Shown: in pieces, positions 3,087 to 48,281 of the stretch
Numbering within the stretch: the stretch's first letter is position 1
Layout of the letters: the number at the start of each line of letters is the position of its first letter
Source: a virus
Lineage: Duplodnaviria > Heunggongvirae > Uroviricota > Caudoviricetes
Direction: 5' to 3' (one strand)
Length of the DNA: 64,000 bases
IMG/VR virus record: IMGVR_UViG_3300009154_000029
Position numbers and translations under genes: made by a program
The notes under the pieces: model-generated
Database searches by the model: none
What the model was told of the DNA's origin: nothing
Seen by the model: the letters and a program-made list of their open reading frames with translations, nothing else

Positions 3087-3332
3087 ATGAGTGTATTAAA
3101 AGTTGGAGACGAATTCAGAACTAACGACCTCAGCCTTATCCCCGGCGGTAAAACCGTCACAGTCATTTACCAGAACGGTAAGAAGCTTATCTATGACAAG
3201 GTAAAAAGTCCGGGTAAGTATATCAAATCAATATCCGAGAAAGTCTCGACTGACGGTAAAATTGTTGAGATCCTAGTAAACGGAAAACAAGTTTGGACCG
3301 ACAGTGAAACAAGATCGCCTTGGGACATATAA
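3087..3332 (+). CDS. Hypothetical protein
   Basis: 81 aa ORF. Confidence 0.8.
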   Translation: MSVLKVGDEFRTNDLSLIPGGKTVTVIYQNGKKLIYDKVKSPGKYIKSISEKVSTDGKIVEILVNGKQVWTDSETRSPWDI

Positions 3333-43958: not shown

Positions 43959-44142
43959 GGGGTGAAAACTTTTTTATATATATCTATAGGGGTTTAAACA
44001 AACCCTGCACATTTTAGATTTTAAATGGTCCTTTTGATATATAGGAAAGATCAATTAAAACAAATTTAAGAAATATTTTTAAAGTGGGATCGAAACCCAA
44101 ATTTGAAATATAACTATAAAATCAAACAAAAATTAAAAAAAC

Positions 44143-44322
44143 ATGAAAAAAACATTTGCATTGATTGCCTTATCAGCTATTTTAGGATTGACTTCTTGTG
44201 GCGGTGCTTCAACATCAACTCCTGCTACTACTGATAGCACTCACGTAGATTCTACTAAAGCTACTGTTGATACTGTTAAAGCTACAGTTGACACAACAGC
44301 AGTTGATAGTACTAAGAAGTAA
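44143..44322 (+). CDS. Small Thr-rich lipoprotein (59 aa, not in ORF track)
   Basis: MKKTFALIALSAILGLTSC lipobox; DST repeats; terminator at about 44346-44377. Confidence 0.8.
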   Translation: MKKTFALIALSAILGLTSCGGASTSTPATTDSTHVDSTKATVDTVKATVDTTAVDSTKK

Positions 44323-44424
44323 TCTTGGAAAAAATTAGGAAATCAGAAAAGCTTAGATAAATTCTAAGCTTTTTTTTATGGGATAATGAAATTTTAATAC
44401 ATATTAGCAATAATAGTATCACAC

Positions 44425-44555
44425 ACAGGAGTGGCGGAAGGGGATTAAGCCGGCTTAAGCCCTAATGTTAGACGTAGCCTTTTTAGATTTCCGGGATTTA
44501 ATTAGGTCAGTTGCAGAGTAATCGAACTGTGAAGGTGCGAGTCCTTCCTCCTGTA
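44425..44555 (+). ncRNA. tRNA-shaped RNA (131 nt) with D-loop and anticodon-loop insertions
   Basis: Acceptor ACAGGAG/CTCCTGT+A; T-arm GAAGG-TGCGAGT-CCTTC; Leu-type D elements separated by an inserted hairpin. Confidence 0.7.
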
Positions 44556-44560
44556 CAAAT

Positions 44561-44641
44561 GGCCCTCTGGTGGAACGGTAGACACTTAGGTCTTAGGAAC
44601 CTATGCCGAGAGGCGTGAGAGTTCGAATCTCTCGGGGGTCA
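44561..44641 (+). tRNA. tRNA-Leu(TAG), class II
   Basis: TAGGT-CTTAGGA-ACCTA, long variable arm, canonical T-arm. Confidence 0.92.
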
Positions 44642-44661
44642 CTTTAAAAAAATTCTACAGA

Positions 44662-45087
44662 ATGAGAAAGATCTCAATTTACCTCGACGATATCAGAATA
44701 CCTATCGAACACCCAGAAAACAAAATATGGGAGATAATTAGAAGCTATGAAGATTTTGTGGAAGTTGTAGAGTTAGTTGGTTTAGATAATATAGATATTA
44801 TTTCACTAGATCACGATCTAGATCCTTCTGCGACAAAGCACTTTCTCGATGAGGTTCTTCTAACTTATCAAATTGACTATTCTAAGATAGAAGAGAAAAC
44901 TGGATTGGATGTTGCCAAATGGTTAATAATGCATTCTATAGAGACCGGAAAGAAATTACCTCTCTGTTACGTTCACTCTGCAAATCCTATAGGTGCAGCA
45001 AATATAGAGGGCCACATAAATCTCTATTTGAAAAAATGCAGAATGCCAGAGAACTGTGTTAGAGCCAAATGGAAATGTGTCAGATAA
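44662..45087 (+). CDS. Cyclic-phosphate-processing receiver-like domain protein
   Basis: IYLDDIR, ISLDHDL, VHSANPIG motifs. Confidence 0.7.
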   Translation: MRKISIYLDDIRIPIEHPENKIWEIIRSYEDFVEVVELVGLDNIDIISLDHDLDPSATKHFLDEVLLTYQIDYSKIEEKTGLDVAKWLIMHSIETGKKLPLCYVHSANPIGAANIEGHINLYLKKCRMPENCVRAKWKCVR

Positions 45088-45105
45088 TTGATTTAATTTT
45101 AGAAC

Positions 45106-45324
45106 ATGCCATATACACTTTATTACCCAGCTTATGATATCAACGTCGATCCCATTGACGGTGAAATAAATTTACCTATTTGTAAATGCCCAGAGGAGGA
45201 TGGATGTATATTTATGAAGAATTGGATTAGCGACGGAAAGCCTACACATATACCAAAAGACGAGCTTGATACTCTAAATTCAGAGAAAAATATAACAGAT
45301 AGCGAGCCTTTTGTTTTCGAATAA
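45106..45324 (+). CDS. Hypothetical protein
   Basis: 72 aa ORF. Confidence 0.65.
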   Translation: MPYTLYYPAYDINVDPIDGEINLPICKCPEEDGCIFMKNWISDGKPTHIPKDELDTLNSEKNITDSEPFVFE

Positions 45325-45387
45325 TTCGCACTAATATTTTTTATTCCGTGATTACCCTTTAATTTTGTGTTCATAAAATATAAAAAT

Positions 45388-45582
45388 ATGGACAACCCAC
45401 TAAAACCGACGAATGAAGAATTCCAAAGAGCAGGTTTATTAGCTGTGCTAGCTCAATTTGCGACAAATCCAAACGTAGAGATCCACACACAATTATCTAT
45501 AAAGCAAGCAACGATGAATGTCTTAAACCAGCATCCAGTTAATGACAGAGTTGAAAATATAGTCAGAATTAAAATGAGATAA
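45388..45582 (+). CDS. Hypothetical protein
   Basis: 64 aa ORF. Confidence 0.65.
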   Translation: MDNPLKPTNEEFQRAGLLAVLAQFATNPNVEIHTQLSIKQATMNVLNQHPVNDRVENIVRIKMR

Positions 45583-45594
45583 ATAAAGCAATAC

Positions 45595-45668
45595 ACGGGT
45601 GTGGTGCAATGGTAGCATACAGGTCTCCAAAACCTTTGATGGGAGTTCGAATCTCTCCGCCCGTGCCA
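45595..45668 (+). tRNA. tRNA-Trp(CCA) with encoded CCA end
   Basis: CAGGT-CTCCAAA-ACCT; acceptor ACGGGTG/CGCCCGT. Confidence 0.92.
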
Positions 45669-45672
45669 GATT

Positions 45673-45745
45673 GCTCTTGTAGTTCAATGGATTAGAACAC
45701 TTGACTACGGATCAGGAGATAAGGGTTCGAATCCTTTCGAGAGCA
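45673..45745 (+). tRNA. tRNA-Arg(ACG)
   Basis: CTTGA-CTACGGA-TCAGG. Confidence 0.92.
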
Positions 45746-45786
45746 CAGCTCCAGATCTGGTTAAAACCAGTAGTTACCACATTTAT

Positions 45787-45858
45787 TGCCGCATGATGTA
45801 ATGGTTAGCATCACAGATTTTGATTCTGTTCGTATTGGTTCGAGTCCAGTTGCGGTAA
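45787..45858 (+). tRNA. tRNA-Gln(TTG)
   Basis: ACAGA-TTTTGAT-TCTGT. Confidence 0.9.
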
Positions 45859-45952
45859 CATAGAAATCTAAAATATTTTTTGACTGAACAGAAACATTAT
45901 CTTTGATCTGTTAGTACAAAAATTAAGGTCTTTGACATATTGGTTAAAAAAT

Positions 45953-46024
45953 GCCGCGTTGGTCAAGAGGTTAAGACGCCTCCCTTTCACGGAGGAATCA
46001 CGGGTTCGAGTCCCGTACGTGGTA
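45953..46024 (+). tRNA. tRNA-Glu(TTC)
   Basis: CCTCC-CTTTCAC-GGAGG. Confidence 0.93.
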
Positions 46025-46175
46025 CAGCCCGGATAAAATGCGTAGATAAAATAGCTGTGAGAGCAGTGACGCAAGGGTACACACTTAGGACAGGTAGAAA
46101 TGCCCATCTCTCTTATGGTGTGTGAAGCGGTTTAACAACCTCGGGATTCCTGATAAATTTTATCATCCGGTTTAA

Positions 46176-46249
46176 GGATCGGTAGTTCAGTTGGTTAGAA
46201 TGCTGCCCTGTCACGGCAGAGGTCGCGGGTTCGAGTCCCGTCCGTTCCG
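46176..46249 (+). tRNA. tRNA-Asp(GTC)
   Basis: CTGCC-CTGTCAC-GGCAG. Confidence 0.93.
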
Positions 46250-46507
46250 CAATCAGCCCCGTTGGCCAGGGGATCGAAATACAGGATAGACATCCCATAA
46301 GAACTGTCCGCATATATCCTCCTAATCGTTAGTAGGCACAGAGGCAACACTGGAGGTTTTTTTGTAAATGTTGTAGGTTTGCCCGTTTAAAACCAAATAA
46401 GGTGAAATAGAATGTAAACCCAACAAGTGTATGTTAGTAGTTTACTGACTAACTTAAACTAAATAGGAATATCTTTTTATCGTTGGTGTCCTTAAAAATG
46501 GGAACAT

Positions 46508-46590
46508 AGTCAGGTGGTGGAATTGGAAAGACACTAGGGAAACCTTCCCGAGAATGAAAGTTCATACAGGTTCGAATCCTGTCCTTACTA
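46508..46590 (+). ncRNA. tRNA-shaped RNA with collapsed anticodon loop
   Basis: Acceptor AGTCAGG/CCTTACT+A; T-arm ACAGG-TTCGAAT-CCTGT; anticodon arm GGGAA-ACC-TTCCC. Confidence 0.7.
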
Positions 46591-46602
46591 CAAAAATAAA
46601 AT

Positions 46603-46676
46603 GGACTCTTAGCTCAGTTGGTTAGAGCATCTGACTCATAATCAGAGGGTCGCTGGTTCGAGCCCAGCAGGGTCCA
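46603..46676 (+). tRNA. tRNA-CAT (elongator Met or Ile2)
   Basis: TCTGA-CTCATAA-TCAGA. Confidence 0.9.
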
Positions 46677-46704
46677 CACAAAGTTCTTTGGTAACTTATT
46701 AAAT

Positions 46705-46776
46705 AGTGGCGTAGAGCAGTGGTAGCTCACTAGGCTCATAACCTAGGGGTCGGTAGTTCGAATCTACCCGCCGCAA
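46705..46776 (+). tRNA. tRNA-CAT, initiator-like
   Basis: 1:72 mismatch, GAGC/GCTC D-stem, CTAGG-CTCATAA-CCTAG. Confidence 0.85.
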
Positions 46777-46781
46777 CACTT

Positions 46782-46853
46782 GGTCTCATAGTTCAACGGA
46801 TAGAACGCAGGTTTTCTAAACCTGATATCCAAGTTCGATTCTTGGTGAGACTA
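46782..46853 (+). tRNA. tRNA-Arg(TCT)
   Basis: CAGGT-TTTCTAA-ACCTG. Confidence 0.92.
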
Positions 46854-46974
46854 CATTGTAGGGAAATAATCTCAAGCAGCCCTAAATGGAGAATCGTTCA
46901 AATCTGTCCAGATATAAGAATGTGCTACCGCCGGTAAAGATTGCTAAGGTTGACGCGGGGAAAGTCCCGACCAT

Positions 46975-47121
46975 AGTCAGGTGGTGGAATGGTAAACGCA
47001 TTAAGATAACAGGACTGTATGTCTGTCTTGGAGTGGATATACAAAGTCAAGCTGTGTTACTCAGATTAACCAAGTGACGAGGGTATGCTTAATTTTACAG
47101 GTTCGATTCCTGTCCTGACTA
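46975..47121 (+). ncRNA. tRNA-shaped RNA (147 nt) with an approximately 80-nt structured domain replacing the anticodon loop
   Basis: Perfect acceptor AGTCAGG/CCTGACT+A; T-arm ACAGG-TTCGATT-CCTGT; closing stem ATTAAG/CTTAAT. Confidence 0.75.
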
Positions 47122-47138
47122 CAAAAAAAATAAAAGTT

Positions 47139-47285
47139 ATGGAAGAAGTAAATTACGAATGGGTTATCGGACAAGGATGGGTTGTAGAATCTAAAGATCA
47201 TCAACTTAAAACTACAGTGGAAGAGATGCTCAAAGAAGTAGATGCGGCAATAAATTTTCAAGAGTACATAGATAACAATTACTAA
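47139..47285 (+). CDS. Small hypothetical protein
   Basis: 48 aa ORF between RNAs. Confidence 0.6.
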   Translation: MEEVNYEWVIGQGWVVESKDHQLKTTVEEMLKEVDAAINFQEYIDNNY

Positions 47286-47294
47286 AAATAAATA

Positions 47295-47369
47295 GCTCTC
47301 GTAGCCCAATTGGCAGGAGGCAATAGACTTAGGATCTATCCAGTGTCGGTTCGAATCCGACCGAGAGTA
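47295..47369 (+). tRNA. tRNA with TAG anticodon (Leu) but short variable loop
   Basis: ATAGA-CTTAGGA-TCTAT; variable loop CCAGT. Confidence 0.85.
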
Positions 47370-47389
47370 CAATTAAAAAAACAAACAAT

Positions 47390-47629
47390 ATGAACCAGAA
47401 CGAACCAATGCAAATGAATCTCCAGTTGGAGCAAACAACACCGGTAGTTTGTGAAGAATGTGGAAACGACTCATTCACTCGAGTTATGTTTCTCAGAAGA
47501 GCTAGTAAATTTTTAACAGGTGCTCCACAGGACACAGTTACTCCGATTCCAACTTTTGCTTGCTCAAAATGTAAACACATCAACTCAGAGTTTCAATTAA
47601 AAACAGATAGCTCAGAAGACCCTGAATAA
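47390..47629 (+). CDS. Zn-ribbon protein
   Basis: CEEC...CSKC. Confidence 0.8.
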   Translation: MNQNEPMQMNLQLEQTTPVVCEECGNDSFTRVMFLRRASKFLTGAPQDTVTPIPTFACSKCKHINSEFQLKTDSSEDPE

Positions 47630-47634
47630 CCAAT

Positions 47635-47817
47635 ATGGAAAAGACAGATCCAAAAAGAAAGATTTGCATGAATTGCAAATACCTTATCTGGGCGGTAGGA
47701 GTAGGACAGGGTTTAAAATGTTCAAGAGTAAGAAAAGAGAATAGATACGAGGCAATACCTCATAGCGAGCACACGTGCGAATTGTTTGAGTTTAAGGAGG
47801 ATCAAAAAACAACATAA
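47635..47817 (+). CDS. Small Cys-rich protein
   Basis: CMNC...C...C. Confidence 0.7.
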   Translation: MEKTDPKRKICMNCKYLIWAVGVGQGLKCSRVRKENRYEAIPHSEHTCELFEFKEDQKTT

Positions 47818-47822
47818 CCCAA

Positions 47823-48281
47823 ATGGAAAGATCATTCAGAACGCTGGGCAATAATAAAAAGATAGATCTTTTTCCCTACATTAAGGAGTATTTAGAGCTT
47901 CATAGTGGAGTTCAGATCCTGATTGGATGTGATTCACAGAACAGAAAGAATGACACGATTTATGCAGTTGTAATCGGTCTATACACGCCAGGTAAAGGTG
48001 CTCATGTTCTTTATAGTAAATTTAATACAGTAAGGGAAAGAGATTACGTTAATAGACTTCTTAATGAGGTTTGGTTCTCGGTTGAAACTGCAGAAACTAT
48101 TAGAAAAGATGTTGGGGTTGTTGCTAAGTGGATAGATATTGATCTTAATCCAGATCCTAAGTATCGATCAAATCAAGCTCTTACAAGTGCGGTTGGAATT
48201 GTTACTGGCATGGGATATCAAGTGAGACATAAGGGTAACTCACCTGTTATGACCTATGCAGCAGATCATCTGGTTAAATAA
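47823..48281 (+). CDS. YkuK/DUF458 RNase H-like protein
   Basis: IGCDSQ, LLNEVWFS, IDIDLN, YAAD. Confidence 0.85.
   Translation: MERSFRTLGNNKKIDLFPYIKEYLELHSGVQILIGCDSQNRKNDTIYAVVIGLYTPGKGAHVLYSKFNTVRERDYVNRLLNEVWFSVETAETIRKDVGVVAKWIDIDLNPDPKYRSNQALTSAVGIVTGMGYQVRHKGNSPVMTYAADHLVK

Follow-up and report, generated by a model that had tools for sequence, protein, structure and literature searches.

A phage gene with a leucine-type tRNA frame and a folded module in place of the anticodon arm

The RNA 3 locus and its tRNA frame

The window is a 64,000-nt stretch of DNA from a virus of the class Caudoviricetes (IMG/VR record IMGVR_UViG_3300009154_000029), and the DNA sequencing runs that contain the locus described here are from freshwater or lake metagenomes. 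Eleven plus-strand tRNA calls made by ARAGORN are clustered at 44561–47370 of the window, and the RNA 3 gene lies in this cluster, at positions 46975–47121 on the plus strand. RNA 3 is composed of a leucine-type tRNA outer frame and a 94-nt folded module that replaces the anticodon arm. A close relative of the window phage, contig L131, carries an orthologous RNA 3 gene, next to an ORF with 89% amino-acid identity to its counterpart in the window. The elements of the frame, together with a paralogous gene on the same frame, are as follows.

46508–46590, plus strand: RNA 2, a paralogue on the RNA 3 frame with a different and shorter insert (tRNA model, 30.3 bits)
46975–46981, plus strand: 5′ strand of the acceptor stem, AGTCAGG, with 7/7 Watson–Crick pairs to CCTGACT at 47114–47120
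46982–46999, plus strand: U8, G9 and the leucine-type D arm (from the sequence and the family profile)
47094–47096, plus strand: short variable region, TTT (from the sequence)
47097–47113, plus strand: T arm, ACAGG-TTCGATT-CCTGT, with T54, T55, C56 and A58 (from the sequence)
47114–47122, plus strand: 3′ strand of the acceptor stem, A73 (47121) and C74 (47122) (from the sequence)

The frame has the hallmarks of a tRNA body, including a 7-bp acceptor stem, a discriminator base, a D arm with A14 and G18G19, and a T arm with T54, T55 and C56, and ARAGORN recognises its acceptor, D and T arms. Specifically, the D stem, GTGG/ACGC, forms three pairs and a G13.A22 mismatch, the D loop, which holds A14 and G18G19, reads AATGGTAA, and the variable region is devoid of a long variable arm. 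The CCA end is not fully encoded, as only C74 follows A73. The D arm and the T arm are 97 nt apart, a distance made up of the 94-nt module and UUU, and 82 nt lie between the two 6-bp strands of the stem that closes the module (P1), where a 7-nt anticodon loop belongs. A canonical anticodon arm, with a 5-bp stem, a 7-nt loop, U33 and a purine at position 37, is absent from RNA 3.

A sequence-only reading of this DNA had described RNA 3 as a tRNA scaffold whose anticodon loop is replaced by a folded domain, and the acceptor stem, D arm, T arm and 6-bp ATTAAG/CTTAAT stem on which it relied are all found where it had placed them. It had named a match to a known Rfam family or intron as grounds for abandoning its proposal; RNA 3 matches neither in Rfam at E values up to 10. 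In particular, RNA 3 was without a match when the whole window was searched against Rfam at gathering thresholds, and again when positions 44000–48000 were searched at E values up to 10, the tRNA family RF00005 included. Thermodynamics alone lends the structure no support, with a minimum-free-energy z-score of −0.96 against shuffles for the whole of RNA 3 and a predicted fold without a cloverleaf.

The surroundings of RNA 3 hold several other features. The tRNA cluster contains a gene for a cyclic-phosphate-processing receiver protein (cREC_REC; 44662–45087; Pfam E 1.4e-19), and close to the tRNA genes is one that is RNase H-like (PF04308; 47823–48281; E 3.3e-18). Homologues of cREC, for which a role in RNA repair has been proposed (PMC7824862), also adjoin tRNA clusters on jumbo-phage contigs of 207–434 kb (L001, L002 and L004) and on shorter viral contigs (L003 and L005). 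At 47295–47370 is a 76-nt tRNA with anticodon UAG, a reader of a leucine codon, which has a short variable loop and is conserved in L131 (3908–3983); it is thus a type I tRNA and not the usual type II tRNA-Leu, a situation with a precedent in Streptomyces (PMC6614811). Three stretches between tRNA genes (46026–46175, 46251–46507 and 46855–46974) are free of ORFs and contain patches conserved in L131, and contigs from RNA library X20 cover 46034–46127 and 46268–46498. These stretches may be further non-coding RNAs.

Structure and conservation of the 94-nt module

The module was compared between three lineages, namely the window phage, L131 and L144, an unrelated 44.6-kb viral contig. The comparison defines four helices (P1–P4) and the following elements.

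47000–47005, plus strand: P1 5′ strand, ATTAAG, the equivalent of the anticodon stem, which closes the module and pairs with 47088–47093
47007–47011, plus strand: P2 5′ strand, TAACA, which pairs with 47055–47059; a C-G pair becomes U-A in L144
47013–47023, plus strand: 5′ strands of P3 (4 bp) and P4 (7 bp), which pair with 47045–47048 and 47036–47042
47024–47035, plus strand: apical loop of 12 nt, with TGTCTTGGAG invariant in the three lineages
47027–47031, plus strand: CTTGG, a possible pseudoknot strand in the apical loop, complementary to CCAAG
47036–47048, plus strand: P4 3′ strand, AA bulge (47043–47044) and P3 3′ strand (from the L131 and three-lineage covariation)
47055–47059, plus strand: P2 3′ strand, TGTTA (three-lineage covariation)
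47060–47087, plus strand: 28-nt strand between P2 and P1 (three-lineage comparison)
47063–47082, plus strand: 20-mer CAGATTAACCAAGTGACGAG within the P2–P1 strand, invariant in the three lineages
47070–47074, plus strand: CCAAG, which possibly pairs with the apical loop (sequence complement)
47088–47093, plus strand: P1 3′ strand, CTTAAT (three-lineage covariation)

From P1 to P1, the 94 nt of the window and L131 modules align without gaps and differ by 15 substitutions. Ten of these make up five compensatory pairs and two are switches between G-U and G-C, while the unpaired columns contain three substitutions in 50, so that the apical loop and the 28-nt P2–P1 strand are nearly the same in both copies. 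The substitutions fix the register of the module, with P3 formed by GACT/AGTC, P4 comprising 7 bp, and the AA bulge placed between them. The TAACA/TGTTA and GACT/AGTC helices, the long hairpin and the CTTGG...CCAAG complement that had been picked out by eye in the letters of the window are all present in RNA 3. The long hairpin, which had been given 8 bp, consists instead of 7 bp and the AA bulge, because a T-A to A-T change in L131 assigns T47016 to GACT/AGTC.

The three-lineage comparison extends this picture. Both partners are altered in 10 of the 22 nested pairs, pairing is preserved in 96% of cells, compared with 25–37% for slid partners, and no shuffle attains the observed values; the alignment was fitted to a covariance model, which favours pairing. 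Double-sided changes affect 7/11 pairs of P3 and P4 and two pairs of P1. The possible pseudoknot, CUUGG/CCAAG, is intact in all three lineages, its ten bases being invariant and hence without covariation. In addition, a near-identical metagenome copy (L173) differs from the window at three positions of the frame and at no position of the module. The insert of RNA 3 is therefore a four-helix folded module with invariant unpaired segments, kept by selection, in which conservation is higher in the unpaired bases than in the stems. An insert lacking conserved structure would have counted against the sequence-only reading; compensatory changes instead back the helices of the module.

The copy in L144 lies at 1437–1527 and is matched from end to end, with 41 bits and an E value of about 1e-10, by a covariance model of the module that was built from tRNA-borne copies only. 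This copy sits on a plain extended stem without a tRNA frame. ARAGORN finds no tRNA at the site, no copy of the AGUCAGG frame occurs anywhere in the L144 contig, the L144 proteins do not match those of the window and L131 loci, and a search of the L144 module region against Rfam returned nothing. Since the same module has no tRNA frame in L144, it is a portable cassette. The surrounding L144 sequence is a 640-nt region without ORFs (993–1632), in which the module is flanked by a possible outer stem, GAGTAG/CTACTC, and a hairpin, and which may encode a larger unknown RNA.

Carriers of the module were found in three lineages only in searches of viral contigs and metagenomes. Among viral contigs outside the window, exact occurrences of CAGATTAACCAAGTGACGAG are restricted to L131 and L144. 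A 17-mer search of metagenomes gave 53 matches, of which L173 (98% identical to the window) and L166 (of the L131 type) are real and the remainder are chance matches. A gapped pattern of the module gave two additional matches, both in coding DNA and attributable to chance, and the covariance model detected no further copy in 1.4 Mb of loci of the frame family described below. Furthermore, none of 185,579 prokaryote species genomes contains the 20-mer, and nothing therefore points to mimicry of a cellular RNA by the module. A search of the 64-kb window for an antisense target of RNA 3 yielded nothing beyond chance matches no longer than 10 nt.

The AGUCAGG-frame family

To find relatives of the frame, we scanned IMG/VR for the T arm and the 3′ acceptor strand only, and then inspected the sequence upstream of each match. 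The scan of this 3′ half returned at least 120 viral contigs, and more than 140 copies of a near-identical, leucine-tRNA-like frame were found in uncultured viral contigs. The 5′ half, although not searched for, is conserved with the consensus AGTCAGG-TG-GCGGAATGGTAGACGC, corresponding to the acceptor strand and a leucine-type D arm. Among the matches listed, frame positions 1–12 are 81–100% conserved in about 130 distinct copies, and positions 1–7 are 95–100% conserved in 130 copies. C74 is retained in 135 of the 138 family copies listed, even though it was no part of the search pattern; such retention is what processing of the ends as in a tRNA would lead one to expect.

RNA 3 agrees with this family at both ends. 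Its 5′ half matches the consensus AGTCAGG-TG-GYGGAATGGTARACGC at 23/25 positions, and its 3′ half, at 47097–47122, is exactly ACAGGTTCGAWTCCTGTCCTGACTA followed by C74, matching the consensus at 26/26 positions; the exact 25-mer of its own 5′ half is absent from viral contigs. These agreements and the compensatory changes in its helices place RNA 3 beyond chance. RNA 3 belongs to a widespread phage family with one nearly constant leucine-tRNA-like frame, in which the acceptor stem AGUCAGG/CCUGACU and A73 are combined with a D arm of class II type and a canonical T arm. It shares with other members a variable, non-canonical insert and a phage context, in its case a phage tRNA cluster.

The middle segment of the family is highly variable. 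Gene lengths among the matches listed range from 54 to 182 nt, and the 110 inserts of 30 nt or more among these matches fall into at least 95 clusters without mutual similarity. Several contigs carry two to five copies of the frame with differing inserts. The folding energy of the inserts is mildly below that of shuffles (mean z −0.57). A naive family-wide test for a closing stem at the insert ends gave no enrichment (3.18 bp against 3.11 bp in shuffles), in a comparison that is poorly defined because the D arm varies in length and many inserts include the variable arm.

The frame occurs in 16 of 185,579 prokaryote genomes (one genome per species), and all 16 are contigs of metagenome-assembled genomes, several of them in Bacteroidota bins. 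All 16 copies carry an odd insert and none has a normal anticodon arm. The rarity of the frame in these genomes, its confinement to such contigs and its odd inserts set it apart from cellular tRNAs. Neither Rfam nor the searched literature, the frame sequence included among the queries, yielded a description of the family; one survey mentions unspecified 'tRNA-like' candidates in viruses (PMC10690425).

Several variants border on the family. A 71-nt copy (L046) and a few other short copies have a canonical-looking anticodon arm, for example with the loop CUUUUAA (Lys UUU), and judging from these sequences the family may include some decoding tRNAs. Jumbo-phage contigs of 207–434 kb (L001, 10964–11054; L217–L219) each have a single tRNA-like gene, in which the T arm is the same but the acceptor stem differs (GATCAGA/TCTGATC) and the middle is non-canonical. 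No conserved neighbour protein is universal over 136 family loci; the commonest is a family of proteins of about 80 residues (median), found at 25/136 loci and often in tandem copies, with the motif MKQTAVEWL...QAKEMEKEQI...YYNETF (for example L037 3537–3961, L101 1703–1909 and L201 1705–2339).

The sequence-only reading had grouped RNA 3 with RNAs 1, 2 and 4 of the window as an undescribed family of phage RNAs on a tRNA chassis. A large family does exist and RNA 2 shares its frame, but RNAs 1 and 4 are built on other tRNA frames. In the L131 orthologue of RNA 3, a 22-nt hairpin is inserted in the D loop (3115–3137) while A14 and G18G19 are kept, showing that the frame tolerates peripheral insertions while retaining its core. 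D-loop insertions are also present in other family copies (for example L058, L072 and L107) and in RNAs 1 and 4.

A further variant is the tRNA-Arg(UCU) gene of L131 (3790–3889), the orthologue of window positions 46782–46854, in which exactly 27 nt are inserted between nucleotides 36 and 37. These nucleotides would pair with the anticodon loop, lengthening the anticodon stem to a 12-bp helix. Insertion-free alleles are present in four other viral contigs (L222–L225), and the window allele has the same frame as L131 with a different anticodon stem. Real tRNAs of this phage group can thus gain insertions in the anticodon loop. From its sequence, the L131 gene would be either a tRNA on its way to becoming a frame RNA or the bearer of a short phage tRNA intron of a novel kind, and the insertion would accordingly illustrate either the route by which frame RNAs originate or an unknown splicing route.

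Among assembled metatranscriptome contigs, one 174-nt contig from a river spans 46973–47081 without interruption, at a depth of 3.3 and with six differences from the window. It weakly suggests that a relative makes the RNA in unspliced form, but it could also be DNA carry-over. In a search of RNA runs for the sequence words of RNA 3, no run reached half of them. The assembled RNA contigs showed no joint across 47012–47086 and did not cover the flanking ORFs, observations that do not count as evidence either way. Joints between the 5′ half of RNA 2 and the 3′ half of RNA 3 in RNA contigs proved to be other family members and not products of splicing.

Possible roles of the frame and the module

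The closest known analogue of RNA 3 is the species 1 RNA of phage T4. Like RNA 3, T4 species 1 (rnaC) and species 2 (rnaD) are small stable RNAs of about 120–140 nt encoded in a phage tRNA cluster. The 139-nt rnaC has a canonical T arm, CCGGG-TTCGAAT-CCCGG, and an acceptor-like end pairing around a large internal domain, and its 3′ part is read as Leu-like by ARAGORN with introns allowed, whereas rnaD has no obvious T arm. At the sequence level, a blastn-short comparison of RNA 3 with T4 gave only chance-level matches of 8–14 nt, none in rnaC and two in rnaD (8 nt, E 6.6). Unlike the RNA 3 family, the T4 RNAs are single genes, and a constant frame that hosts hundreds of exchangeable inserts is not known among them. 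Stable tRNA-like RNAs of phage tRNA clusters have been on record since these two, for neither of which a function is known.

Other systems resemble RNA 3 in part. Class II tRNA-Leu of bacteria or phages (RF00005) resembles the RNA 3 frame in its D arm (GGYGGAAUGGUARACGC), discriminator base A73, T arm and tertiary-core nucleotides, but it has a 7-nt anticodon loop and a long variable arm, both of which RNA 3 lacks. tmRNA also closes a large insert with an acceptor and T-arm frame and has a possible pseudoknot, as RNA 3 does; however, it is about 350 nt long with G3:U70 and a tag reading frame, whereas RNA 3 is 147 nt long with U3-A70 (U3.G70 in L131) and no tag frame. The identification of RNA 3 as a tmRNA was rejected, since the tmRNA search of ARAGORN (-m) finds nothing and G3:U70 is missing, and the distinction from tmRNA drawn from the letters alone was therefore sound. 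YrlA, a bacterial Y RNA (RF02553), is likewise a non-decoding tRNA mimic found in some phages, with a reversed topology in which the tRNA-like part is internal; its model does not match RNA 3, and its sole weak match, at 46541–46654, scores 19.4 bits against a threshold of 69. Ponchon and Dardel reportedly engineered tRNA scaffolds for recombinant RNA expression in which a payload replaces the anticodon arm. Such scaffolds owe their processing and nuclease resistance to the tRNA body and carry the cargo on the anticodon stem, the same design as in RNA 3, except that they are man-made and RNA 3 is natural.

We consider it fairly probable that RNA 3 is a non-decoding, tRNA-shaped gene, whose frame matures and stabilises the RNA and whose module binds a partner in host takeover or counter-defence. 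RNA 3 would be transcribed together with the neighbouring tRNAs, and the frame would recruit RNase P, 3′-end trimming and the CCA-adding enzyme to give an excised and finished RNA, which the tRNA frame would make stable and L-shaped. The module, displayed at the position of the anticodon arm, would be the active part, and the specific partner that it would bind is most likely a protein of the host or the phage. The sequence-only reading had likewise proposed maturation by RNase P and CCA addition, with an aptamer, ribozyme or decoy as the displayed domain. An action in takeover or counter-defence would fit the diversity of the inserts, the carriage of several copies by one phage, and the proximity of RNA-repair genes.

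One alternative, which we regard as unlikely, is that the frame is charged with leucine and that RNA 3 serves as a leucyl-RNA adaptor in a step linked to a transferase or the ribosome, or as a sponge for LeuRS or EF-Tu, with the module providing target specificity. RNA 3 retains A73, U8-A14, G18-U55 and G19-C56, which are reported to be critical for bacterial LeuRS, and the anticodon arm is reported to be dispensable for aminoacylation (PMC2377443); the anticodon is not read by LeuRS (PMC11028032). The leucine-type D arm and the conserved C74 point in the same direction. Against charging, RNA 3 is without the long variable arm, the orientation of which mattered in the Aquifex study (PMC2377443), and its first pair is A1-U72. 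Moreover, replaced anticodon arms are also found on the Arg frame and on RNAs 1 and 4, so leucine identity is not required for the phenomenon.

A second alternative takes the module to be a self-cleaving ribozyme or an autonomous mobile RNA element that happens to reside in a tRNA gene, the frame being incidental. The module has unpaired nucleotides that never vary, stems that covary freely, a potential pseudoknot and two unrelated genomic contexts, a profile typical of small ribozymes. Nevertheless, the module has no match among Rfam ribozymes at E values up to 10 and was found in three lineages only, and the frame is itself under selection, as the L131 orthologue retains it despite the D-loop insertion; more than 140 other copies of the frame carry unrelated inserts. 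We give this alternative only a slim chance.

It is also conceivable, but in our judgement decidedly improbable, that RNA 3 is a real tRNA, for example tRNA-Val(AAC), with a 75-nt protein-spliced intron at position 37/38 that is removed by phage-encoded cutting, healing and sealing enzymes. With introns allowed, ARAGORN reports tRNA-Val(AAC) i(38,75) for RNA 3, and the loop halves AUAACA|G supply U33 and A37. As happens in eukaryotic pre-tRNAs, the would-be anticodon is paired with nucleotides of the insert, here through P2. The 27-nt insertion in L131 tRNA-Arg(UCU) and its four insertion-free viral alleles indicate that interrupted tRNA genes exist in this phage group, and the cREC and RNase H-like genes are found by the tRNA cluster. 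The ARAGORN call is uninformative, however, because shuffled inserts give similar calls in about 44% of cases: introns are called in 78/132 real family copies and in 47–64/132 (36–48%) with shuffled inserts, and the anticodons and intron positions called are scattered across the family copies. To our knowledge, a tRNA-Val with A34 is not normal in bacteria.

The structure of the module likewise argues against splicing. In L144, the module has no surrounding tRNA from which to be spliced, and the C of the would-be anticodon is a U that is matched by a G to A change in its partner; the constraint on P2 is therefore on a helix and not on a codon. The RNA 3 insert has no bulge-helix-bulge motif, its junctions being a 1-nt 5′ spacer and a 28-nt 3′ strand instead of two 3-nt bulges 4 bp apart. 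It also has no group I or II core, for which 82 nt are too short, and no match to an intron in Rfam. No insert-free allele of RNA 3 was found among viral contigs, family copies or in the metagenome searches. Gene finders that allow introns will mislabel genes of the frame family as intron-bearing tRNAs.

Finally, that RNA 3 is a tRNA pseudogene in decay, its anticodon loop filled with junk, is extremely improbable and already contradicted by the substitution pattern: although RNA 3 as transcribed cannot decode and has no match to the Rfam tRNA model, five compensatory pairs separate the window from L131 while hardly any unpaired base has changed, the unrelated phage L144 has conserved the module, and the frame of RNA 3 is near-perfect.

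Beyond the partner-binding role that we favour for RNA 3 itself, we tentatively suggest that phages of lake bacteria may run a natural tRNA-scaffold display system, in which one near-invariant frame serves for the expression, maturation and stabilisation of hundreds of interchangeable RNA modules for host takeover or counter-defence. The frame of such a system might still be chargeable with leucine, and its cargo could be aptamers, decoys or small ribozymes. The RNA 3 module would then be one cassette, able to work on a non-tRNA stem too.

The locus shows that tRNA-like phage RNAs are a large and modular phenomenon, with one frame and at least 95 unrelated inserts. What RNA 3 adds is an insert that is a selected, folded domain with a covariation-supported structure and an ability to leave the tRNA frame. 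Taken together, these features suggest that nature reached the same tRNA-scaffold design as RNA engineers.
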